From a virus (taxonomy: Duplodnaviria; Heunggongvirae; Uroviricota; Caudoviricetes): 64,000 nucleotides of DNA. The notes beneath the pieces are model-generated. The model made no database searches. It was not told the DNA's origin and saw only the letters and a list, made by a program, of their open reading frames with translations. The DNA lies in the IMG/VR virus record IMGVR_UViG_3300035208_002255, positions 1 to 64,000 of that record; one strand, written 5' to 3'. This document shows, one piece after another, positions 1,898 to 58,486 of the stretch; positions within the stretch are counted from its first letter, which is position 1, and the number at the start of each line of letters is the position of its first letter. The position numbers and the translations under genes were made by a program.

Positions 1898-2350
1898 TCA
1901 TAGACCCAAAGTTTCCTTTAGCTTGGCATTGTACTTTCCAAACGGCCCACCAATAAGCTGTTCCCAAGTTACCCAAGCAGCAGGTCCCGCATCACCCTGT
2001 TTTGGTATGTCTTTTATAGTACCATTGTATAAGTATGTAATAACAAAGAATTTGGCATCTTTTCGGTTAAATACTGGAACTAACTTATTTTTATCCAATT
2101 TAATAAAGGACTCTTCCCAAACTTCTCGAACCAAAGCATCAACAGCATCTTCTCCTGGATCCACTTTTCCACCAGGCAGACCCCATTGATCGGTAGTTCC
2201 TCGGCGAGCTACTGCTAGAACTTTTCCATCTTCTCTTATTGCACAAACGCAAACCGATAGGATCAGTGCGTTAGGATTCCCAGCAAGGAACGAAGACTCA
2301 AGCTTCAGATCATTATTTAACAGTTTAAAAAGATCTTCTTTTGTAGTCAT
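1898..2350 (-). CDS. NUDIX hydrolase
   Basis: Nudix box GLPGGKVDPGEDAVDALVREVWEESF (GX5EX7REUXEEXGU). Confidence 0.8.
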   Translation of the reverse strand: MTTKEDLFKLLNNDLKLESSFLAGNPNALILSVCVCAIREDGKVLAVARRGTTDQWGLPGGKVDPGEDAVDALVREVWEESFIKLDKNKLVPVFNRKDAKFFVITYLYNGTIKDIPKQGDAGPAAWVTWEQLIGGPFGKYNAKLKETLGL

Positions 2351-2616
2351 TAAATAGCTTTCACGATATTTTGGTAATGCTCAAAATGCTCCTGAGTACC
2401 CTTAAACCCAAGATCACGAGAATAGGCATAAGCCAAAGCTTTTCCATTATTGTAAGCTTCTTTAGATCCATTAAAGCCCTGGCTCCATACAAAGCGATAT
2501 GTTGGTGCGTCAGTTCCGGGTAACACTCCGGCCCCATAGGTCAAAAAAGCATTCGTGTCAAAAATAAACACAAGTAACTGACGATCTGCAAACCATTTAA
2601 CTTTAGTGACTTGCAT
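2350..2616 (-). CDS. hypothetical protein
   Basis: 88 aa ORF, stop overlaps start of the upstream gene by 1 nt (translational coupling). Confidence 0.4.
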   Translation of the reverse strand: MQVTKVKWFADRQLLVFIFDTNAFLTYGAGVLPGTDAPTYRFVWSQGFNGSKEAYNNGKALAYAYSRDLGFKGTQEHFEHYQNIVKAI

Positions 2617-2644
2617 AATTTATTTCTGCTCATTCTCTTTCAGC

Positions 2645-2722
2645 TTGGTGTTTCTGATAATGCTGTAAGAAAAAGGATTAGAAGAATTAGAGCGGGTGGC
2701 GAGATTCGAACTCTTATTTCAT
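2645..2722 (+). pseudogene. duplicated 3'-terminal fragment of HNH endonuclease gene (direct repeat of 3393..3470)
   Basis: About 78 nt, roughly 90% identical to the last ~20 codons plus downstream flank of the intact HNH gene 2748..3458, including ...SDNAVRKRIRRIRAG and a GAGATTCGAACTCTTAT tail. Confidence 0.6.
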
Positions 2723-2747
2723 TCTATCAATAACACCACATTGCTAT

Positions 2748-3458
2748 ATGTATAGGGAAAAGTCATCAATCATTTGGTCATTAACAGAATCGGAATTCCG
2801 AGAACTTATTAAATCTTCCTCAACTTATAAAGAAGCTTTGATTAGGCTTGGTTTTGCCATAAAGTCCGGAGGAAACTATAAGACTTTAAAGAAGAGAATA
2901 CTAAGAGATAAAATAGATATTTCACACATTGAACGAAACAAACATCAATTTAGAGGTGTGGCTAAAGAAGAAATACCACTTGAGAAAATGCTTGTTAAAA
3001 ATTACCATAACTCAACTAGAAGTCTTAAACGAAAGTTATTAAACAGCGGATTGATTAAAAATCAATGTTTTAAATGTGGTCTTAAAGAAGAGTGGCAAGG
3101 AGAGCCTATCTCTTTGCAGCTTGATCATATCAATGGTGATCATGATGATAACCGATTAGAAAATCTAAGGATTCTTTGCCCAAACTGTCATTCACAGACA
3201 AATACTTATAGTGGTAAAAATTCACATCAAAGTAAAAGTCCAGATTGGATCTGCAAATGCGGAAGGCGTAAACACAAACAGTCAGATGTTTGTTACAGTT
3301 GTTTTAAACAACCGGAGAGAACTATTTGGCCATCTGATGATGATCTGATCAAGAAATCAGAAACACAATCAATACTAAGTATTGGAAAAGAACTTGGTGT
3401 TTCTGATAATTCTGTAAGAAAAAGGATTAAAAGAATTAGAGCGGGTAAAGAGAGTTGA
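2748..3458 (+). CDS. HNH homing endonuclease (paralog 1 of 3)
   Basis: LQLDHINGDHDDNRLENLRILCPNCH HNH motif; C-terminal LGVSDNSVRKRI helix-turn-helix; plus strand while neighbours are minus; paralogs at 43255 and 49747. Confidence 0.8.
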   Translation: MYREKSSIIWSLTESEFRELIKSSSTYKEALIRLGFAIKSGGNYKTLKKRILRDKIDISHIERNKHQFRGVAKEEIPLEKMLVKNYHNSTRSLKRKLLNSGLIKNQCFKCGLKEEWQGEPISLQLDHINGDHDDNRLENLRILCPNCHSQTNTYSGKNSHQSKSPDWICKCGRRKHKQSDVCYSCFKQPERTIWPSDDDLIKKSETQSILSIGKELGVSDNSVRKRIKRIRAGKES

Positions 3459-3665
3459 ACTCTTATATTTTGGTTGGAAGCCAAATGTAATAAGCCGTTA
3501 TACGACACCCGCAAAGTAATGAAATAAACCCTAGTGTCTACACTAGCACAGGAAAATTTTCCCGTTCCTTTGAAGATTATCTCATTAGTGTTGAGGTGGA
3601 ATATAAGCAATCTAAACGTCCCATATCCCCTTACTCTGCCTGGCAACCTCAACTCTGATTAATAC

Positions 3666-4571
3666 CTAGATATTACCTGTCTCGACCATTCTTTTCTCGG
3701 AAGATACAAAAATCGTTTGGTTACTCTTTAAATATTCGATGTAGTACTCGAAACTTTCATTTGCCAGAATTTCACCTTTGGATATTTTATCTTCTAGAAT
3801 GACTCTGATAGCACCAATCTCAGGGCCAATTGGGATACCCAATTTGAGAGAGATTTCATTACCAAGACCTTTCGGCAAACCCGAATGCTTGGAATCCTTC
3901 TCCCTGATTTCCCTGATCCTGGCCTTAAGTTCGTCAATTCTCCTGACGATCTTCTCTCGTTTCTTTGGTGAAGCAGTTGTAATATCAGACGCGCTCAAAG
4001 TCAAGAGATCTTCAAGGTACATGTCCATTTCTTTTGCGAACCTACGAACAGCCGAATCTGTCCACTCGTGTTCGTACCCTTCAGCGTACCCAAGATTGGA
4101 TACCAAGAAATGAATGCAGGTTTTTTGACCACAACTAAAGATATGGACTTTATTAGTGAACTTATCAAAGATCTTTGCAGAGATCTTCTCATGGTGATGG
4201 AACGTGACTTTGTTGTCCTTGATTGAAAAGGATTGAGCCTTTCCAAGGTCATGGAACAAAGCAGCCCACCTGAGGTTTAGCTTTGGAGGAGTTTGAGATA
4301 CAACACGAATAGTGTGTGGCCAAATCTCTTTGAATTGCTTTGAACTCTTTAGGTCCAAAGATTCCTGAATTTCCGGGATGAGCCAATCGAAGAACCCAGC
4401 CCGCTGAAGAACAACAAGCGCAAGTCCAACATGAGGACCAACCATTATCTCATGAAGAATGCGAAAGTCTTTCTTACCAAGCTCTTTCACTTCTTCTTTG
4501 GTAACTGGTATGAACTCATCATCACACTTACCATACAAAGCCAATGATCTGGCTTGTGTGAGTAATTTCAT
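3666..4571 (-). CDS. HD-domain phosphohydrolase (CCA-enzyme-like HD domain)
   Basis: 301 aa; AALFHDLGK HD motif, H...HD...D spacing; no nucleotidyltransferase head domain seen. Confidence 0.45.
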   Translation of the reverse strand: MKLLTQARSLALYGKCDDEFIPVTKEEVKELGKKDFRILHEIMVGPHVGLALVVLQRAGFFDWLIPEIQESLDLKSSKQFKEIWPHTIRVVSQTPPKLNLRWAALFHDLGKAQSFSIKDNKVTFHHHEKISAKIFDKFTNKVHIFSCGQKTCIHFLVSNLGYAEGYEHEWTDSAVRRFAKEMDMYLEDLLTLSASDITTASPKKREKIVRRIDELKARIREIREKDSKHSGLPKGLGNEISLKLGIPIGPEIGAIRVILEDKISKGEILANESFEYYIEYLKSNQTIFVSSEKRMVETGNI

Positions 4572-4894
4572 ATAACTGCAACTCTCTTTCCTGAAATGAA
4601 ACTTTCGAGATCAACCTTATCAGCGTATTCATCGTAGTCAACAAGAATCTCTTCATCTTTCTTGATAGGTTTAATCGAAACAAAATGCCAACCATCATCT
4701 CTTTTCACAGTCTTGGCATTGGGAATTTTCGAATCATTAATCAGAAGTCCAAAAGTATTACGAAAGAAAGTTTTTGATGTTTCAGTCTCTGATGATAGTG
4801 GAATTGAAAGACCAAGGTCTGTGTTCTTGTGAACATCTTCGGTACAGAATGTTCCATTACCATGAATTTTTGATTTCTTAATACACCACTTCAT
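4568..4894 (-). CDS. hypothetical protein
   Basis: 108 aa ORF, 4-nt overlap with flanking genes. Confidence 0.4.
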   Translation of the reverse strand: MKWCIKKSKIHGNGTFCTEDVHKNTDLGLSIPLSSETETSKTFFRNTFGLLINDSKIPNAKTVKRDDGWHFVSIKPIKKDEEILVDYDEYADKVDLESFISGKRVAVI

Positions 4895-5583
4895 ACAATA
4901 CCTTCAGCTAAGGAAAACCGCTTTTTCATTTCTGTAGTCTCTAGCAATGCTCTAAACCAGCTATCGTTTGTTACAAACTTTTCAACTTTGTCTAGAAACT
5001 TTTCGACATTTAGAAGATCCATTGTGATTCCATTTTGGTGTCTAAAACCATCAATAGAAATCCAGAACCTATCTCCATGGTGTTTGATTTTGCAAAGGTC
5101 TTTTTCCGTAATTTCGTATCCACAATATTTTGTATTTGGAACTTCCATTCCAATGAATAATGGAAATGCATTTAGTTGCATTCCCATAACTTCCTTATAA
5201 TCATGATCTGTTTTTGAAACTAGTATAGCTTCTTTGTCGGGAATAAGACACAGCGTATCAAGTAAATTCGTGTATCCATTCCTGATGTCTATCTGAACCC
5301 TCTGAATGGTGTCCCAGATATCAGGTCGTTCCTCTCTCAAAGAGAGGATTCCGTTCAGCATATCACGTTCCCATCGACCTTGCAAGATCCCTCTTACGCG
5401 AAGTCTATCTGCTTGATTTCGAAGATCTTCCAACCAATCGTCCGAAGGATAGGCCGGACGGGGCTCGGTATTTGAGCACAGATTCAGCCCCCACTCTACG
5501 AACGGATATTTCGCAGAGATTTCTACTAGTTCGGCTGGGGCAACAGAATCATCAACCCCGCAAATGGAAACTGTCGAAATCAT
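4891..5583 (-). CDS. hypothetical protein
   Basis: 230 aa ORF in operon-like array. Confidence 0.45.
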   Translation of the reverse strand: MISTVSICGVDDSVAPAELVEISAKYPFVEWGLNLCSNTEPRPAYPSDDWLEDLRNQADRLRVRGILQGRWERDMLNGILSLREERPDIWDTIQRVQIDIRNGYTNLLDTLCLIPDKEAILVSKTDHDYKEVMGMQLNAFPLFIGMEVPNTKYCGYEITEKDLCKIKHHGDRFWISIDGFRHQNGITMDLLNVEKFLDKVEKFVTNDSWFRALLETTEMKKRFSLAEGIV

Positions 5584-6185
5584 CCTTCAAATGCTGTATT
5601 ATGCCCGTCTTCAATTTCCAGGGTCTTTAGGTGATATCTGAAAATCATACTGGATCTGAACATGAAATTGAAGAACTTATCGTTCTTCGCCAGGATTCCA
5701 AAGTGCTCACAGTTAGGAAGCAGGATGATGGTTTTGGGTTGGAATGGAAGTTCTTTAATCTCTATATTTTTTCGGTCTACATCGTAATGTAGACCAGGTT
5801 TGTAATGACCATTGCTTTGGTATTCAACTTTGGACTTTAAAGCCTTTACCGTTTTTTCGTCACCAATCCAAATACCAAGATCTTCGGGTTTGAAGTCTTC
5901 ACAATTGAATCTGGTGGAAAAATCCCAAACGGCTTCTTGGAAGTTTTCTACATGATACAGAGGACGTAAAGAAGCAGCCTCGATAATCGCCTGCTCTAGT
6001 TTCGCTTTCCAATCAAATTGTTCTTGCGAAAGCATTGGCAGGCAAATTCTACAACACCTGACTTCGGAAGCTTGTTCACCGGCAAGTCCAAGGTACCAAA
6101 TATCTTCATCCCCACCCTCATAGTATGGAGAACACCCGCCAAGGTTATCATGTACTAAAACACTCTCAATGGTTCTGTGGCCCAT
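5580..6185 (-). CDS. hypothetical protein
   Basis: 201 aa ORF. Confidence 0.45.
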   Translation of the reverse strand: MGHRTIESVLVHDNLGGCSPYYEGGDEDIWYLGLAGEQASEVRCCRICLPMLSQEQFDWKAKLEQAIIEAASLRPLYHVENFQEAVWDFSTRFNCEDFKPEDLGIWIGDEKTVKALKSKVEYQSNGHYKPGLHYDVDRKNIEIKELPFQPKTIILLPNCEHFGILAKNDKFFNFMFRSSMIFRYHLKTLEIEDGHNTAFEG

Positions 6186-6380
6186 GTCCGTATCTATATC
6201 AACATCTTATGGTCAGAACTCAAGAGGTTTTATGCTGCGCTCCCCCACAATATTTCCGTTGTCTAAAGTGTAGATAAACTGCTGGTTTGGGTAATATGCA
6301 AATCTTTCAGTGATATCACTTATATGGAGCCCATGGCGAGGATTCAGCTCGATACATGGACAATCTTTCAGACTTGATTC

Positions 6381-6584
6381 TTAACAATCAATCAAGTCTT
6401 CTGCTAGTTTGAGCCAAACATGCTTATCACATGCATTATCGAAATTACCAGCATCGAACGGCTCAAGGAAGGAAGGCATGCAGTTTTCTGTTAATTCAAT
6501 TCGAGCATCGCGAATACCACGTAGATAATATTCCCTTAGCTTTTCTGCAACAACTTTGATAACAGCTTCTCTTAAAGTAACCAT
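6381..6584 (-). CDS. hypothetical small protein
   Basis: 67 aa ORF. Confidence 0.3.
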   Translation of the reverse strand: MVTLREAVIKVVAEKLREYYLRGIRDARIELTENCMPSFLEPFDAGNFDNACDKHVWLKLAEDLIDC

Positions 6585-6699
6585 GGATCCCTCACATAAG
6601 TGGGGAGTTCACCTAACCCGCTCCTCCATTACTATGCATTAGTATTCGCTGAATTGATTTCTTCTTCGGCGATTTCCTCTTCATAGTCGCGTACATACA

Positions 6700-13420: not shown

Positions 13421-15412
13421 TCAGGATTTAGCGCCAACACTCAGCATGTAGTCTTCGATTTCGTTCACCGCCTCAATGAAGTGAGGTGAGCGCTTCATGC
13501 TTTTATCTCGTACGAACGGTAGAGGGGATCTGAACATCTTACGAATGTTTCCAGGATTCCTTCCCATCACGTAGATATCATCACCAAGATATACAGCTTC
13601 AGGAATATCATGGGTGACGAATACAACTGTTGGATTGATATCCGCCCAAATCTTAGCAAGAAGGTCCTGCATCTGTAGACGGGTTTCGATGTCCAAAGCT
13701 CCGAATGGTTCATCCATTAAAAGAATCTCTGAGTGATAAACCAGAGAGCGAGCAATTGCTACACGCTGAAGCTGGCCACCGGAAAGCGTTGGATACTGAG
13801 CGTATTTGTCTTCGTGACCTTCGAGACCCACAAGCTTGATCATTTCCATGGCTTTCTCTCTGCGCTGTTTGAGAGGAATGCCTTGGTATTCAAGACCCAG
13901 AGCCACGTTGTCAAGAACGCTCATCCATGGAAATGAAGAGTACTGTTGGAAGACCATTCCAACCCTATCTTCCTGTGTTCTTTCTCGCCCATGAATAAGG
14001 ATCTTTCCAGAAGTTGGGGTTTGAAGACCAGAGATATACCTAAGTATAGTTGAATTGTGAACAACAAATCCATTGGCCACAAAAGAATGAGATTCTGGAT
14101 TTGTTAGATCGTACACATCACTTTCTGATACTTCAATATTTGAAATTCTTCTATAATCGCGAATTAGAGGTTCTTTATTAGATTTTGGTTGTTGTTTTCT
14201 TCCTAGTTTAAACAGCTTATAAAGATTTTTAGATTGACGAATGTATACTCTATGAGATTTTCCACGAAATGATCTTTTGTATCCAATACCCATTGTAGAT
14301 AGCATAACGCATACAAAATCAATTAACTCTTTGGAATTTAATGCAATTTCGGCATCTTTATTATTTACACGAGAGTATCCATCTGTATCAAACAAACCTT
14401 GTAAAAATCGTAGTTGATGGTTGAACGAACTTTGTCGAATGCATTTTGGAACATCTTTTGTATCAGCATTAACATTACCAAAGATTTTGTGTAGCCAATA
14501 TGTAAAATGATTACTTTCTTTTGGTCGCAATAAAACTGCTTTTGTTCCATTTTTTTCACTTTGAGTAACTTCCACTCCAAATGTTTTTAGAGTGTATGTT
14601 TTGAAGAAATCGATCAATTCTTGATCGGCGGAAGTAAAACTAAATTGTTCACCAACAGAACCGTCGCCAGCAATCAAACCAAAATAATATGCAATGTTAC
14701 TAGATACAAAACCAGGAGCTTTAAACTTTGGTTTTTTGAGTTGATTTCTAACAACCCTATTAACAATCATTGGGCTAATATCTAGTAACTTTGCAATTTC
14801 TCTTTGGTTTAAACCTATCCTTTTATATCGTCGGATTTTTCGCTGCTTGGAAAAGAAACTTTTAGGAATTGCTCTGGGTAAACAGACCCGATCTTCCTGT
14901 GATTCGAAATTCATCTGCAAACCTTCTTTGGCAATAAAGTGCCCAATTTTAAGGTTTGCCATGGACATCCACTCTTCTTTGTTAGCAATTTTAACAAGAA
15001 CAGGATGTTCTGGAGTGCCCTCCAATCTATCTCCATCTTCTGTTGTTATGATTATAGTTTTTTTCTTACCACCATAATAAGTATGAGAGATTCTTTGATT
15101 CTCATTAGCTACCAGAACACCAAAATTGTTTCTTGGCATTGGCTGGTTTACCGGATGTTGTTCATCAAATAAATCTTCAATTCTACGAAGACCAGTTTCG
15201 CAAGTAACCCATGTACCTTTAGCTACACATTTGCCACAACCCGAAGCACCAAGCAAGACAACAAACTGTCCCTGATTCGGCTTGTCTTCAATGAGAAGAT
15301 TGAAGTCCTCGATGATAGGGGGCTTGCCATCATAGACCTGTGAAATACCACTCAATTCAATGATATCAGGAAGTTCTGTATTGGTGAATTTAACTGGTTG
15401 TTCCATAATCAA
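13421..15412 (-). CDS. ABC transporter ATP-binding protein (NitT/TauT family) interrupted by an intein
   Basis: Walker A GASGCGK is split; C-extein has LSGGQLQRVAIARSL, Walker B LLMDEPFGALD and an H-loop; 663 aa, of which 271 aa are extein. Confidence 0.85.
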   Translation of the reverse strand: MIMEQPVKFTNTELPDIIELSGISQVYDGKPPIIEDFNLLIEDKPNQGQFVVLLGASGCGKCVAKGTWVTCETGLRRIEDLFDEQHPVNQPMPRNNFGVLVANENQRISHTYYGGKKKTIIITTEDGDRLEGTPEHPVLVKIANKEEWMSMANLKIGHFIAKEGLQMNFESQEDRVCLPRAIPKSFFSKQRKIRRYKRIGLNQREIAKLLDISPMIVNRVVRNQLKKPKFKAPGFVSSNIAYYFGLIAGDGSVGEQFSFTSADQELIDFFKTYTLKTFGVEVTQSEKNGTKAVLLRPKESNHFTYWLHKIFGNVNADTKDVPKCIRQSSFNHQLRFLQGLFDTDGYSRVNNKDAEIALNSKELIDFVCVMLSTMGIGYKRSFRGKSHRVYIRQSKNLYKLFKLGRKQQPKSNKEPLIRDYRRISNIEVSESDVYDLTNPESHSFVANGFVVHNSTILRYISGLQTPTSGKILIHGRERTQEDRVGMVFQQYSSFPWMSVLDNVALGLEYQGIPLKQRREKAMEMIKLVGLEGHEDKYAQYPTLSGGQLQRVAIARSLVYHSEILLMDEPFGALDIETRLQMQDLLAKIWADINPTVVFVTHDIPEAVYLGDDIYVMGRNPGNIRKMFRSPLPFVRDKSMKRSPHFIEAVNEIEDYMLSVGAKS
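14054..15229 (-). mobile_element. intein (392 aa) with LAGLIDADG homing endonuclease domain in the ABC ATPase P-loop
   Basis: Starts with Cys right after GASGCGK, ends ...FVVHN followed by Ser; LAGLIDADG blocks YYFGLIAGDGS and LQGLFDTDGYS. Confidence 0.8.
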
Positions 15413-31712: not shown

Positions 31713-32336
31713 TTCATTTTAATTTCTAGATGGAAAGACATCTTCTTTAGAGAAATTGTCATACATTAAGGAAATGTGACTAAGTTGGTATGGCTGAACG
31801 CTTAAAGGTCTAACCATAGTTAGAACTTCCATCCAGCCATGAACCGCACAGGATTCGAACCTATATTTCCTACACTTAGCATTGTCCGGACAATGCTAAA
31901 TGTGGCGTTCCTAAACCATTTAAACTAGCGGCACGAGGAGTTGAAATCTATCACATCGAAACTTGATGTCAAGAACTTTTTGTAGGACGAGTCAGGGTTG
32001 AACGATAACTTTTAAAACTCTGACAACTGCTGGCGTGAACCGCTAGCTATCCTGTTTCGAGATGCGAAGTTACTACTAGAAGTTCTGGAAGTCAAGCTTT
32101 TTCTTTTGGGGCCTACTGTTTCAGGGATTCAATTGGGCCACCATTTGGAACGAAAACAAAATCACGAAAACCACTGTTCCATAACTGCATCATAGGTGAT
32201 TTTCTCACCATTGCTAGATGTAGCGTTGCCTTCCAAAATGACACCCTCAAACCAAAGGTGAATGCTAAACCAAACCTTATCCTTTGGTAATCTACGAATT
32301 GCGTCACCAACTAACGCCGACTCCAATCCAATATCT

Positions 32337-42985: not shown

Positions 42986-43128
42986 CAGTGCGCTGGTTCA
43001 TTAGGGTAACGAAAGAGTGTTGACAAATGGGCCACAGTTTCCTGTGTTTTCCAAAAGCCCAGCGGGGATTCGAACCCCGTCTCGCCAATGTTTGAGATAG
43101 ATGAAATGTCAACGGGCGCGTTACTTAG

Positions 43129-43211
43129 TGTGCAAGGAGGGACTCGAACCCTCACGTTTTTAAAACGGCGGGGTTTAAGCCCGCTGCGGCTACCTATTAC
43201 GCCACTCGCAC
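43129..43211 (-). tRNA. tRNA-Leu (anticodon TAA), class II
   Basis: Acceptor GTGCGAG/CTTGCAC with one G-U pair, anticodon stem GCGGG/CCCGC, loop CTTAAAC, long variable arm. Confidence 0.7.
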
Positions 43212-43254: not shown

Positions 43255-43959
43255 ATGAGACAAAAAACAAGTATAATTTGGAAACCTAATCGCGAAGAAT
43301 TTCAAACTATTGTAAATCAATATAACAGCTTAGCTGATATTTTACGACATTTTGGTTTACATGTTGGAGCTGGAAATTATAAAACTCTCAAAAATAGATT
43401 ACGAGAAGATAGTGTTAATTTTGAGCATATTAAGCTTGGTATAAATTCTAATAAAAATCGTCCGTCACCATTTAAGTTAGAGCTAAATGAAATTTTAGAT
43501 CGTCATTTAGTTTTTAACTCAAAAATAAAATCATCAAAACTGAAGGAATATATTCTTAAATTCAAATTGTTAGATAATAAATGTTCAGAATGTGGTCAAT
43601 TACCTGAGTGGAATGGTAAGCCGTTAATTCTTCAATTAGATCATATTAATGGTAATTCATCTGATAATAGATTAGAAAATCTAAGAATTCTTTGTCCTCA
43701 TTGCCATTCTCAAACAGATACTTTTTCTGGTAAAAGACTTAAAAAGCATTACAATTGTATTGATTGCCATTGTAGCATTACTAAAAACTCTACAAGGTGT
43801 AAATCATGTTCAAGTAAATTAACAAATAGAAAGACTAAGATTAATTGGCCTCAAAAAGAAGAATTAATTAAAATTACAAATGATATAGGATTTTCTGCTG
43901 CTGGTAGAGAGCTTGGCGTATCAGATAACGCTATTAGAAAACGATTAAAAATCCATTAA
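43255..43959 (+). CDS. HNH homing endonuclease (paralog 2 of 3)
   Basis: LQLDHINGNSSDNRLENLRILCPHCH; C-terminal LGVSDNAIRKRL. Confidence 0.8.
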   Translation: MRQKTSIIWKPNREEFQTIVNQYNSLADILRHFGLHVGAGNYKTLKNRLREDSVNFEHIKLGINSNKNRPSPFKLELNEILDRHLVFNSKIKSSKLKEYILKFKLLDNKCSECGQLPEWNGKPLILQLDHINGNSSDNRLENLRILCPHCHSQTDTFSGKRLKKHYNCIDCHCSITKNSTRCKSCSSKLTNRKTKINWPQKEELIKITNDIGFSAAGRELGVSDNAIRKRLKIH

Positions 43960-44149
43960 CATATAGGGGTCGAACTCATAAGTCCTTGCGGATCGTCAAC
44001 TTTCCAAGTTGATGCCGTCGCCAGCTGTCGGCTAGTCTCTCCATATTCCACTCGCGCACTCCCTAAGTGGACATCGGTTTTCTATCGTGTGCGCTACGCC
44101 AGTTCTATTGAACTAGAAAGAGTTTAAGTAACGAAAGAAGCGAGACCAT

Positions 44150-44262
44150 CGTTTTTCGGCGTCCTGCCACTAGACGAAATCCAATAAAGCTGGATAGAGG
44201 AATCGAACCTCTGTTTCCGGCGTGGAATGCGATGAATGATCTCAGAGCGCGTTACTTAGATG
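44150..44262 (-). other. tRNA-like cassette: T-arm + 3' acceptor (ATCCAGC), then TTT, then 5' acceptor-like (ATTGGAT) + D-arm (CGTC-TAGTGGCAG-GACG), flanked by motif 1 and motif 2
   Basis: Same permuted arrangement as 50791..50885, weaker acceptor pairing (5/7). Confidence 0.4.
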
Positions 44263-44406: not shown

Positions 44407-44540
44407 AAAAACAACGAAAATGCGATGACCAAATGTGTCTGCCAGTTCCACCACATCTAAGTTTCCTTAGATGACAGGATTCGAACCTGTAATTCCAATA
44501 TGTTTGTTTAGATGAATGGTCATCAAGCGCGTTGTTTAGT

Positions 44541-58248: not shown

Positions 58249-58407
58249 ATAAAGAACAACGAAAAAGCGAGACCAGTTTTGTTTTTAAGCTTCCTGGCCG
58301 TTGTATTAGTTCTTTCGAACTAGTGGCCAGGGTTGGATTCGAACCAACAATCTATTTCTTTTCATGGAATTGCTTTGCCGATGAAAGATCTCTAACGCGT
58401 TGTTCAG

Positions 58408-58486
58408 TGGATGCAGTAGGATTTGAACCTACAAGTCTGTGAGGAACCGGAGCGATCCGGCGGGCCGCCAATTGCCCAATACATCC
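58408..58486 (-). pseudogene. tRNA-Tyr-like paralog with disrupted anticodon loop
   Basis: Acceptor, D-arm and T-arm nearly identical to tRNA-Tyr at 58588; anticodon region CCGGA-TCGC-TCCGG has a 4-nt loop. Confidence 0.4.

Follow-up and report, generated by a model that had tools for sequence, protein, structure and literature searches.

The window, the whole 64,000-nt stretch of viral DNA analysed here, carries near its left end, in the tRNA cluster of a giant phage, a selfish gene for a predicted HNH endonuclease, HNH1, whose 3' end overlaps a tRNA-Gly gene, and a second, partial copy of this endonuclease/tRNA junction lies upstream of it. The features of the locus are as follows.

1982–3504: tract divergent between the window and the co-occurring strain (L038/L030), with more than 600 differences inside
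2644–2717, plus strand: copy A of the direct repeat (repeat family D1), a relic
2705–2747, plus strand: conserved 5' leader of the HNH cassette, consisting of a T-loop-like TCGAAC, then TTCTATCAATAACACCACATTGCTAT, then the ATG
2748–3458, plus strand: HNH1, predicted free-standing HNH endonuclease gene of 236 aa, an intact ORF with profile matches
3393–3466, plus strand: copy B of the direct repeat, comprising the functional HNH1 3' end and the antisense of the 3' third of tRNA-Gly(UCC)
3439–3512, minus strand: tRNA-Gly(UCC), variant 'B-type' allele, called by Aragorn and by Rfam (RF00005, 58.1 bits)

As the original prediction stated, an intact HNH gene lies between the repeats. Its product matched phrog_10822 over residues 11–228 (E=2e-47) and, in Pfam, HNH at 21.7 bits (cut-off 21.4) and HNH_3 at 23.3 bits, under that family's cut-off of 24.8. 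HNH1 and its two paralogs in the window, HNH2 and HNH3, share invariant CxxC pairs and an invariant DH...N...H motif (C107, C110, D126, H127, N135, N139, C144, C147 and H148), and the C-terminus of HNH1 carries a helix-turn-helix-like LGVSDNSVRKRI motif. A PDB sequence search returned no solved structure close in sequence and no informative match. From its profile matches and invariant residues, HNH1 is predicted to be an HNH (His-Me finger) endonuclease of the phrog_10822, F-TflIV-like type. The leader ahead of the gene is identical from 2719 onward (TCATTCTATC...) in L029, L030 and L038, and in the stretch just ahead of 2719, TCGAAC relic included, 4 of 16 positions differ (TCGAACTCTTATTTCA vs TCGAACCCTCATATCA). 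It is also recognisable in L032, L036, L090 and L092, each with TnGAAC about 45 nt ahead of the ATG, and a related leader (TTCTATCACTAACA) precedes HNH3.

The flank of copy B, originally described as tRNA-T-arm-like, proved to be a real tRNA-Gly(UCC) gene on the minus strand. The Rfam match is full length (model positions 1–71) and the cloverleaf is complete, with acceptor, D, anticodon and T arms; the T-arm reads AAGAG TTCAACT CTCTT, the acceptor 3' strand reads TACCCGC, and the CCA is not encoded. The HNH1 ORF and the tRNA 3' end overlap by 20 nt, the final six HNH1 codons and the stop being read from the tRNA-Gly antisense, and the stop codon TGA (3456–3458) is the antisense of T55-C56-A57. 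The same B-type allele is found beside the HNH ortholog of L032.

The direct repeat of about 90% identity that had been predicted is real, and its limits were refined to 74 nt with 67 identical positions (91%) and a spacing of 749 nt between copies A and B. Its sub-patterns were found nowhere else in the 64-kb window (0 expected from shuffles), and the longest exact matches between the copies do not exceed 18 nt. Copy A consists of the last ~47 nt of an HNH gene (2644–2690, LGVSDNAVRKRIRRI) followed by the 3' part of a tRNA-Gly in antisense (2691–2717): the acceptor 3' strand CACCCGC, the T-stem 3' strand CTCGC and the T-loop TTCGAAT, then AAGAG and AT. In copy B the last 28 nt are the antisense of tRNA-Gly(UCC). 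Both copies share the same in-frame HNH-tail/tRNA junction (...AGAATTAGA directly followed by GCGGGT...), which indicates common descent from one junction between an HNH tail and a tRNA-Gly 3' end. The left segment is thus a gene fragment plus flank, as proposed; what was duplicated is an endonuclease/tRNA junction and not simply the gene's own 3' end with its flank.

The mismatches between the copies are unevenly placed. Up to the mismatch cluster, 51 of 53 positions are identical (2644–2696), five of the seven mismatches then fall within 10 nt of the T-arm/acceptor (2698–2707; chance clustering p ~0.009), and homology extends in both copies through ATAAGAG, the T-stem 5' strand plus 2 nt. 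The T-arm end reads GAGATTCGAACTCTTAT in copy A and GAGAGTTGAACTCTTAT in copy B. The 22-nt tRNA part of copy A is identical to the canonical tRNA-Gly 3' ends at 40 loci in metagenomes and differs from the L029/L030 allele at 1 position, whereas copy B departs from canonical tRNA-Gly at five clustered positions with its T-stem still perfect. These T-arm differences are not random decay: the tRNA-Gly sequence is canonical in copy A and belongs to a variant allele in copy B. The HNH tail of copy A is B-type, with an 11-nt insertion that is missing from the L-type; the canonical sequence is found in its acceptor and in the 3' strand of its T-stem, and the T-stem 5' strand (AAGAG) is again that of copy B. 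Copy A therefore mixes B-type and canonical parts and is itself chimeric, which calls for one further step or more, such as a T-loop joint or conversion over a short patch.

Copy A is neither a tRNA nor a credible gene, and it shows no RNA structure of note. Aragorn made no tRNA call in it with default or relaxed settings or with introns allowed, and Rfam made none at E<=5; of the cloverleaf only the T-loop, the T-stem 3' strand and the acceptor 3' strand are present, and the T-stem pairs at 3 of 5 positions. The sole ORF encodes 40 aa from a TTG start, with weak, sub-threshold HTH matches, and the RNA fold is not significant (z = -1.39). Two other identities were considered for copy A. As the repeat element that trails tRNAs in the window it was rejected, since it is without the CTAAGyAACGCGC...CGTT frame. 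The 3' end of a second tRNA-Gly(GCC), as in relatives, is plausible; the tRNA-Gly(GCC) genes of those relatives are too divergent to decide, and the tRNA part of copy A fits canonical tRNA-Gly whatever the anticodon. Copy A is not part of a longer unrelated conserved element; neither the sister strain L038 nor any related locus that was examined has it, while the L030 contig, beginning at 2719, is uninformative about copy A. A viral-contig scan gave 0 matches to an intact ancestor of the copy A junction or to an HNH-free site in close strains, and a single metagenome scan gave 41 loci, of which 40 were ordinary tRNA-Gly genes of bacterial type and the remaining one was a phage contig of the L-type. 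An intact 'older' HNH copy was found in no relative. When the 88-aa, HD and 89-aa neighbours were looked up by exact protein match, only HNH-carrying contigs came back, and the annotated phage genomes contained no close DNA relative, only HNH-domain and tRNA-Gly fragments.

Comparison with the co-occurring strain showed that the locus is exchanged as a unit. The window and this strain have no mismatch in 1867–1981 or in 3505–6691, and the divergent tract between them (1982–3504) runs from the 5' part of a NUDIX gene across an 88-aa gene, copy A, the leader and HNH1 into the tRNA-Gly, as far as the 5' acceptor strand of the latter; of the two contigs of the strain, L030 starts in the leader at 2719 and shows the right-hand boundary only. 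The right edge of the transferred tract lies inside the tRNA-Gly 5' acceptor strand, and the whole tRNA was exchanged. Within HNH1 the two alleles are patchy, with 58–100% identity per 50 nt (near-identical stretches and patches of 58–80%), and the 3' half of HNH1 together with the tRNA is nearer the L032 type. The L038 tract is 99.8% identical to L029 over 987 nt, and the L029-type phage is only ~83% identical elsewhere, which indicates that the HNH/tRNA-Gly module moves between lineages. In L038, HNH and tRNA-Gly were replaced together in an occupied site. These comparisons point to co-conversion of flanking markers at the HNH1 locus, with a tract bounded by homology, and to an allele as well as a presence/absence polymorphism there among related genomes.

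The HNH orthologs of six other lineages always neighbour a tRNA-Gly: those of L029, L032, L090 and L092 abut its 3' end, and those of L036 and L093 lie just beyond its 5' end. No repeat of the A/B type was found at any of these six loci. The relatives lacking the insertion, with which comparison had been proposed, were found in L001, L002 and L009–L012, which have no HNH between the HD gene and DUF5856 and carry tRNA-Gly(UCC) and tRNA-Gly(GCC) at the place of HNH1.

The two paralogs lie in the right-hand part of the window, together with the following tRNA pieces.

43255–43959, plus strand: HNH2, family paralog of 234 aa, 42% identical to HNH1
43963–44042, minus strand: tRNA-Ser(GGA)-like pseudogene, read from the sequence, with no call by Aragorn or Rfam
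49704–49734, minus strand: 3' part of a split tRNA, with variable loop AAGTC, T-arm CTAGG TTCGAAT CCTAG and acceptor TAGGACC
49747–50421, plus strand: HNH3, family paralog of 224 aa from TTG, 39% identical to HNH1
50407–50432, minus strand: 5' part of the split tRNA, with acceptor GGTCCTG and D-arm ACTC AGTGGCTA GAGT

The original prediction had called the three paralogs near-identical; at only 39–42% protein identity with HNH1, the other two are old and divergent. Its account of their setting was borne out: HNH2 and HNH3 are on the plus strand, against a gene and tRNA flow that is almost wholly minus, HNH2 is 44 nt from tRNA-Leu(UAA) (43128–43211), and HNH3 has tRNA pieces on both flanks. The stop codon of HNH2 abuts the tRNA-Ser(GGA)-like pseudogene, which has kept the acceptor 5' strand through the T-arm and has lost the 3' acceptor strand; Aragorn found no other tRNA-Ser(GGA) in the window. 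HNH3, for which the ATG at 49759 is a likelier start than the TTG, separates the 5' and 3' parts of the split tRNA, the 5' part overlapping its last codons and stop. Aragorn with -i joins these parts into a tRNA-Met(CAT) with a 637-nt 'intron' that is antisense HNH3 ORF throughout. An intron-encoded HNH3 is unsupported, since this model has to assume an anticodon stem of 4 bp and 22 unpaired nt in the variable region, and Rfam detected no intron family around HNH3 at E<=10. Every one of the three paralogs has a tRNA gene, or a fragment of a broken one, abutting it.

The explanation that we prefer, and to which we give roughly an even chance, is that copy A is a non-functional scar, the tail of an earlier HNH copy still fused to the 3' part of the tRNA-Gly that it abutted. 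The HNH lineage resides beside tRNA-Gly, its ORF convergent with the tRNA and running into the tRNA 3' end, and the two are inherited and exchanged as a single module. A leader and HNH1 cassette joined to the variant tRNA-Gly(UCC) allele would have been placed to the right of an older HNH/tRNA-Gly junction, probably when the endonuclease stimulated repair of a double-strand break in the course of homing, or ectopic homing, to a tRNA-Gly that was allelic or neighbouring. The joint on the left would lie in or beside the T-loop, and we infer that the T-loop was the point of cleavage or recombination, that the endonuclease caused the events, and that they took place in this order. The older HNH copy would then have been mostly deleted, leaving 47 nt of tail and 27 nt of tRNA. 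The location of HNH2 and HNH3 beside broken tRNA genes was counted in favour of this explanation.

Homing into an occupied site, as originally proposed, is a realistic process here because the strain comparison shows the module replaced in such a site, but a collapsed 749-bp tandem duplication fits the data too. In that case a unit of leader, HNH and tRNA 3' part was doubled head-to-tail after a break in the T-loop, the first unit was deleted except for its last 74 nt, and the T-arm of the relic later acquired the canonical sequence through a short gene conversion, with a co-infecting strain or a host tRNA-Gly as the donor. The 749-nt period, which equals the distance from the T-loop relic (2705–2710) to the tRNA T-loop (3454–3459), the homology through ATAAGAG and the 51/53 identity, suggestive of a recent common origin, all agree with such a duplication, and SegB-driven amplification of a tRNA and endonuclease unit, with collapse when selection is absent, is an experimental precedent (PMC13096335). 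Against it, there are just 1.1 copies (one unit and a 74-nt remnant) and no assembly holds a longer array; a separate conversion is needed for five clustered changes, all toward canonical tRNA-Gly; and TnGAAC also occurs in distant orthologs that have no repeat, so that this relic of the leader is older than the duplication event. We regard a collapsed duplication as possible, short of probable. It is highly improbable, in turn, that copy A was produced by site-specific integration into a tRNA-Gly 3' end, in the manner of an att-type duplication in which the element brought a replacement 3' end and displaced the original. The R-U-R topology, in which one end has the restored tRNA and the opposite end an orphan 3' part, and the canonical sequence of the orphan against the variant restored end are as such an event would leave them, but HNH is the sole gene between the repeats, with no tyrosine or serine integrase/recombinase there, 47 of the 74 repeat nucleotides are HNH coding sequence outside the tRNA, and the strain comparison shows exchange of the whole tRNA, not of the 3' end alone.

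Copy A might instead be functional and under selection, as a promoter, a 5' UTR, an antisense regulator of the 88-aa gene, or a decoy or spare target site that allows excision or amplification of the cassette through recombination with copy B. It does lie upstream of the 88-aa gene (2350–2616, minus strand), 27 nt from its start codon, a pair of 74-nt direct repeats can lead to the deletion of the cassette or to its amplification, and the GATTCGAAC of copy A fits the SegB cleavage motif RAWTSGAAC, whereas GAGTTGAAC in copy B and the neighbouring intact tRNA-Gly does not (motif: PMC13096335). We nevertheless consider a function unlikely, given the lack of significant RNA structure, the lack of promoter- or terminator-like sites in 2617–2747 and the absence of copy A from the sister strain and every other lineage. 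All observed copies come from one strain, so that conservation gives no support for function. An apparent repeat could also arise from a chimeric join of two strain haplotypes during assembly, since two haplotypes co-occur in the same samples and the contig ends coincide exactly with haplotype boundaries (2719 for the start of L030, 2901 for the end of L008 and 3216 for the end of L007). Such an artefact is barely conceivable: three further assemblies (JGI and two Logan runs), made from three samples, have copy A running on into the leader and the HNH1 5' part, and of these L007 and L008 are 100% and L006 is 99.86% identical to the window, the latter with four mismatches in the HNH1 5' end and all with an identical copy A, and exact A/B matches of at most 18 nt are too short to mislead assemblers.

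Integrase-carrying islands and prophages insert at tRNA 3' ends, which are thereby duplicated as att sites. The HNH1 locus resembles these tRNA-targeting elements in having a direct repeat with a tRNA 3' segment, an intact tRNA at one end and an orphan piece at the other; unlike them, it has no integrase, its repeat is mostly endonuclease coding sequence, and its two tRNA parts are not identical.

A closer parallel is SegB of T4/T6, likewise a free-standing endonuclease gene amid phage tRNA genes. The SegB recognition site includes the T-psi-C stem-loop motif of tRNA, and SegB leads to preferred inheritance of the tRNA region (PMC2330249); it also yields 718-bp tandem repeats of segB and tRNA-Tyr with a truncated endonuclease tail (PMC13096335). 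The HNH1 locus shares with it the joint inheritance of the endonuclease gene and neighbouring tRNA genes, cassette boundaries at T-loop sequences, and a 749-bp period with a truncated tail relic. It differs in that SegB is a GIY-YIG enzyme whereas HNH1, known here from sequence alone, matches HNH families only, in that HNH1 is antisense to the tRNAs and overlaps one convergently, and in holding a 74-nt relic only, not an array. Homing endonuclease genes are also known to mark the boundaries of exchange between phage genomes (Barth, Dunham and Seed 2023, PMC10448857). As at those boundaries, the switch from 100% identity to a divergent tract is sharp and right at an endonuclease gene and its neighbour, and the imported tract is 99.8% identical to a distant lineage; the islands there exceed 10 kb, whereas the HNH1 tract is ~1–1.5 kb with a tRNA gene as cargo. 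Overall, we judge the repeat to be a commonplace scar left by recombination linked to endonucleases, much as with SegB and the T5 F-Tfl enzymes, and the locus reveals no new kind of system.

A more specific reading, which we offer tentatively, is that the HNH lineage is a functional analogue of SegB with another nuclease fold, which would target the T-arm/acceptor end of tRNA-Gly, travel with a tRNA-Gly allele that resists cleavage, its T-loop and T-stem being altered, and so bring about the replacement of tRNA alleles and local duplications in the tRNA arrays of giant phages. If so, the relic at 2644–2717 would be the left-over cut end of a canonical (sensitive) tRNA, and the broken tRNAs near HNH2 and HNH3 would be collateral damage of the same activity. 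The sequence GATTCGAAC recurs in the left relic of HNH3. TTCGA T-loops are present in 26 of the 37 tRNAs of the window, so that the T-loop alone is not the whole target, and TTCGA versus TTCAA is insufficient as a simple immunity marker.

The locus provides a clean case from nature in which a homing-type endonuclease gene has crossed phage lineages together with a tRNA gene, as one unit, with exchange boundaries known to the base and the footprint of the previous occupant apparently surviving. It widens the SegB picture to an HNH family of giant phages that are uncultured, and it suggests that endonucleases of this kind mould the tRNA repertoires of phages and at times damage them. Its main value lies in guidance for annotation, in that the 'flank' is a real tRNA, the ORF overlaps the antisense strand of that tRNA, and the relic is not a gene; it also offers a candidate enzyme/target pair.

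[quoted passage not shown] The HNH gene is on the tRNA strand in the T5/phrog_10822 phages, unlike HNH1, and to our knowledge neither a relic junction repeat nor a tRNA-allele swap has been described in them. The homolog of HNH1 in Enterococcus phage Bop is annotated as 'H-N-H endonuclease F-TflIV', and homologs lie between tRNA genes in Gordonia phage GodonK, Pakpunavirus and Schiekvirus.

The direct repeat that had been noted around the endonuclease gene exists: positions 2644-2717 and 3393-3466 are identical at 67 of 74 nt and lie 749 nt apart, and no part of the repeat occurs elsewhere within the window. The intact gene between the two copies, HNH1, matches phrog_10822 (E=2e-47) and scores 21.7 bits against Pfam HNH (cut-off 21.4), and its zinc-binding cysteines and DH..N..H motif are invariant among the three paralogs compared. 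The original prediction called the right copy tRNA-like, which understated it, since Aragorn and Rfam both recognize a full tRNA-Gly(UCC) there (Rfam tRNA, 58.1 bits, whole model covered).

Features at the HNH1 locus
2644-2717, left repeat copy (copy A)
2748-3458, plus strand, HNH endonuclease gene HNH1, 236 aa
3393-3466, right repeat copy (copy B)
3439-3512, minus strand, tRNA-Gly(UCC)
3580-3652, minus strand, stem-loop element
3666-4571, minus strand, HD-domain protein, 301 aa

The HNH1 ORF is convergent to the tRNA gene and extends 20 nt into its 3' end: the final six codons (RAGKES) are antisense to the acceptor 3' strand and T-arm, and the TGA stop codon (3456-3458) is antisense to T55-C56-A57 of the T-loop. 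This antisense overlap with a working tRNA is among the more informative results. In each repeat copy, 47 nt from the HNH tail, encoding the helix-turn-helix-like LGVSDN.VRKRI..., precede 27 nt antisense to tRNA-Gly that cover the acceptor 3' strand, T-stem and T-loop plus 2 nt of the variable loop. Because the in-frame junction between the two parts is identical in copies A and B, both descend from a single joining of an HNH tail to a tRNA 3' end; an integrase-type att duplication is a very unlikely source of the repeat.

The HNH1 lineage is constantly associated with tRNA-Gly. In six other lineages, orthologs of 51-80% identity are convergent at the tRNA-Gly 3' end, abutting the UCC gene in contigs L029, L032 and L090 and the GCC gene in L092, or lie just past its 5' end (L036 and L093), and HNH-free relatives carry tRNA-Gly(UCC) followed by tRNA-Gly(GCC) at the same place. 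A repeat finder detected no direct repeat in the HNH-bearing L029, L032 and L036, and none was visible in the flanks of L090-L093. All orthologs convergent on a tRNA-Gly 3' end share a leader that opens with TnGAAC, which resembles a T-loop, about 45 nt ahead of the ATG, and the leader 5' of HNH3 is related to it.

As had been proposed, two more family members lie on the plus strand, next to tRNA sequence. They are far from near-identical, with only 42% (HNH2) and 39% (HNH3) protein identity to HNH1, which makes them old paralogs; both lie up against tRNA genes or tRNA fragments.

Features at the HNH2 and HNH3 loci
43255-43959, plus strand, HNH2
43963-44042, minus strand, tRNA-Ser(GGA)-like pseudogene without 3' acceptor strand, truncated exactly at the HNH2 ORF end
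49704-49734, minus strand, 3' part of split tRNA (variable loop, perfect T-arm, acceptor TAGGACC)
49747-50421, plus strand, HNH3
50407-50432, minus strand, 5' part of split tRNA (acceptor GGTCCTG, D-arm), overlapping the HNH3 stop codon

No intact tRNA-Ser(GGA) was found in the window. HNH3 sits inside a split tRNA that has no anticodon arm; the D- and T-arms remain intact, and the acceptor strands of the two halves are complementary. Aragorn -i joins the halves as a tRNA-Met(CAT) with a 637-nt intron, the anticodon CAT being the antisense of the HNH3 ATG. We rejected this call, as its anticodon arm is poorly modelled and the "intron" amounts to no more than the antisense ORF; the split tRNA probably reflects disruption of a gene, not splicing. 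These broken tRNAs also rank among the more informative results.

Copy A is dead. It yielded no tRNA call with Rfam or with Aragorn at any setting (default, relaxed or introns allowed), its T-stem pairs at 3/5 positions (AAGAG/CTCGC), its sole ORF is a 40-aa TTG-initiated fragment, the RNA fold of the region is not notable (z = -1.39), and a search for promoter- and terminator-like sites there found none; a functional role is unlikely. The differences between the copies are not random, five of the seven mismatches falling inside 10 nt (2698-2707; p about 0.009). The mismatch segment of copy A, GCGGGTGGCGAGATTCGAAC, is the canonical tRNA-Gly 3' end of 40 unrelated metagenomic tRNA-Gly genes and differs by one base from the sister-strain tRNA-Gly allele. 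Copy B carries the variant TACCCGC, CTCTT, TTCAACT, and its T-stem pairs perfectly with its own 5' strand. Copy A is a chimera that combines a tail of the copy B type with a canonical acceptor and T-stem 3' strand and, once more of the copy B type, a T-stem 5' strand.

Through exact matches to neighbouring proteins, we retrieved contigs from several samples that belong to the same phage population. Copy A was contiguous with HNH1 in three further assemblies (L007 and L008, 100% identical; L006, 99.86%) and was itself identical in all three, which excludes an assembly artefact; we regard an artefactual repeat as extremely unlikely. The same samples also contain a second haplotype (L038, L030, L042 and L087), which has zero mismatches to the window over 1867-1981 and 3505-6691 and differs throughout 1982-3504, from inside the NUDIX gene to the tRNA-Gly 5' acceptor strand; 987 nt of this tract are 99.8% identical to L029, which elsewhere is only about 83% identical to the window. 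Its HNH allele, P0002, shares 80% protein identity with that of the window and reads on into the antisense tRNA up to the D-loop, its tRNA-Gly(UCC) differs in every stem, and it is without copy A and the 88-aa gene. These results indicate that HNH and tRNA-Gly travel jointly between lineages and can replace an occupied site, and this module exchange, resolved to the base, is likewise among the more informative results. HNH1 is a mosaic relative to the L-type allele (that of L029, L030 and L038), with 96-100% patches alternating with 58-80% patches, and its 3' half and its tRNA are nearer to the L032 type.

The HNH1 family is the HNH group of tRNA clusters in T5 and other phages, known from T5 as F-TflI, F-TflII, as well as F-TflIV (cited in PMC2330249). 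Its best-studied analogue, SegB of T4/T6, differs in fold from the HNH of the window; SegB lies within a tRNA cluster, has a T-psi-C motif in its recognition site and forces neighbouring tRNA genes to be co-inherited (PMC2330249). On our analysis, copy A is best read as the tail of another HNH copy, still joined to the canonical tRNA-Gly 3' end against which it lay. The original observation was largely right, and its "older copy" a fair first approximation. The present cassette (leader plus HNH1) and the variant tRNA-Gly would have been installed beside copy A by break-induced recombination, an origin to which we give about an even chance. SegB can also produce and lose 718-bp tandem repeats comprising segB and tRNA-Tyr with a truncated endonuclease tail (PMC13096335), and collapse of a 749-bp tandem duplication is a possible, though more doubtful, origin of copy A. 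What chiefly separates the two models is the source of the second copy, be it a different genome or the same one; under either, the chimeric structure locates a recombination joint, or a short patch of conversion, within the T-loop. Recombination associated with an endonuclease has here left a scar of an ordinary kind in a phage tRNA cluster.

In the L-type haplotype (L029 3599-3958; L038 reverse complement about 1-400), the NUDIX gene is shorter by about 30 codons at its N-terminus, with a start codon immediately adjoining the HNH leader's T-loop relic, and the 88-aa gene (window 2350-2616) is absent, so that a deletion or replacement ends exactly at the cassette boundary. Breaks in the population's contigs fall at the edges of the polymorphic HNH/tRNA-Gly tract or of its internal mosaic patches (L030 starts at window position 2719 and L041 at 3505; L006 ends at 2868, L008 at 2901 and L007 at 3216), which fits the co-existence of several haplotypes in the same samples.

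The window appears to belong to a giant phage. All 37 of its tRNA genes (Aragorn) and nearly all of its long ORFs are on the minus strand, and its own contig is 154 kb. Distant IMG/VR relatives are contigs of 131-392 kb whose neighbouring HD-domain protein is 51-61% identical; no close DNA-level relative was found among annotated phages. The HD-domain gene lies directly upstream of tRNA-Gly, a position kept in all relatives, and a putative role in tRNA 3'-end metabolism is conceivable because the adjacent tRNA-Gly has no encoded CCA. Between the two genes lies the stem-loop element (GTTGAGGTyGCCAG...GTAAGGGGATATGGGAC...ATATTCyACCTCA), also kept in L001 (7003-7090), a phage with only about 53% HD protein identity; the closing stem recurs in L029, where it surrounds a different insert. 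The element has no Rfam match, with fold z-scores of -1.0 and -2.5. A further selfish element of this genome is an intein with a LAGLIDADG endonuclease domain, which interrupts an ABC-type ATPase ORF (13421-15412, minus strand; Pfam Intein_splicing, LAGLIDADG_3); in the neighbouring contig L006, an epimerase ORF containing LAGLIDADG was also called.

At least seven elements of 126-164 nt each directly follow a tRNA gene.

tRNA-trailing elements and further tRNA-like calls
43002-43127, minus strand, tRNA-trailing element
44124-44258, minus strand, tRNA-trailing element
44407-44538, minus strand, tRNA-trailing element
50758-50911, minus strand, tRNA-trailing element
51069-51232, minus strand, tRNA-trailing element
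53208-53361, minus strand, tRNA-trailing element
58252-58406, minus strand, tRNA-trailing element
54965-55052, minus strand, short variant
about 51310-51385, minus strand, short variant
31840-31934, minus strand, 95-nt "tRNA-Stop" (Aragorn)
58407-58486, minus strand, Aragorn tRNA with two-base anticodon
47216-47273, minus strand, 58-nt tRNA, Rfam alone, 46 bits
33230-33297, minus strand, tRNA, Rfam alone, 39 bits

The trailing elements start with (C)TAAGyAACGCGC, end with CTTTCGTTrC and comprise a T-arm, a loop-closed acceptor-like hairpin and a D-arm within two nested closing stems; there is covariation in support of the T-arm and of each closing stem. This is a circularly permuted tRNA topology, shared with the Y RNAs of bacteria in their tRNA-like module (YrlA, PMC4201824). 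Rfam YrlA gave only a weak match (51109-51196, 27.5 bits), and the large ORFs tested included no Ro60/TROVE ORF. The "tRNA-Stop", with anticodon UUA, would read UAA; at 29.3 bits, barely at the Rfam tRNA threshold, it may be a suppressor tRNA or else a tRNA-like element called in error.
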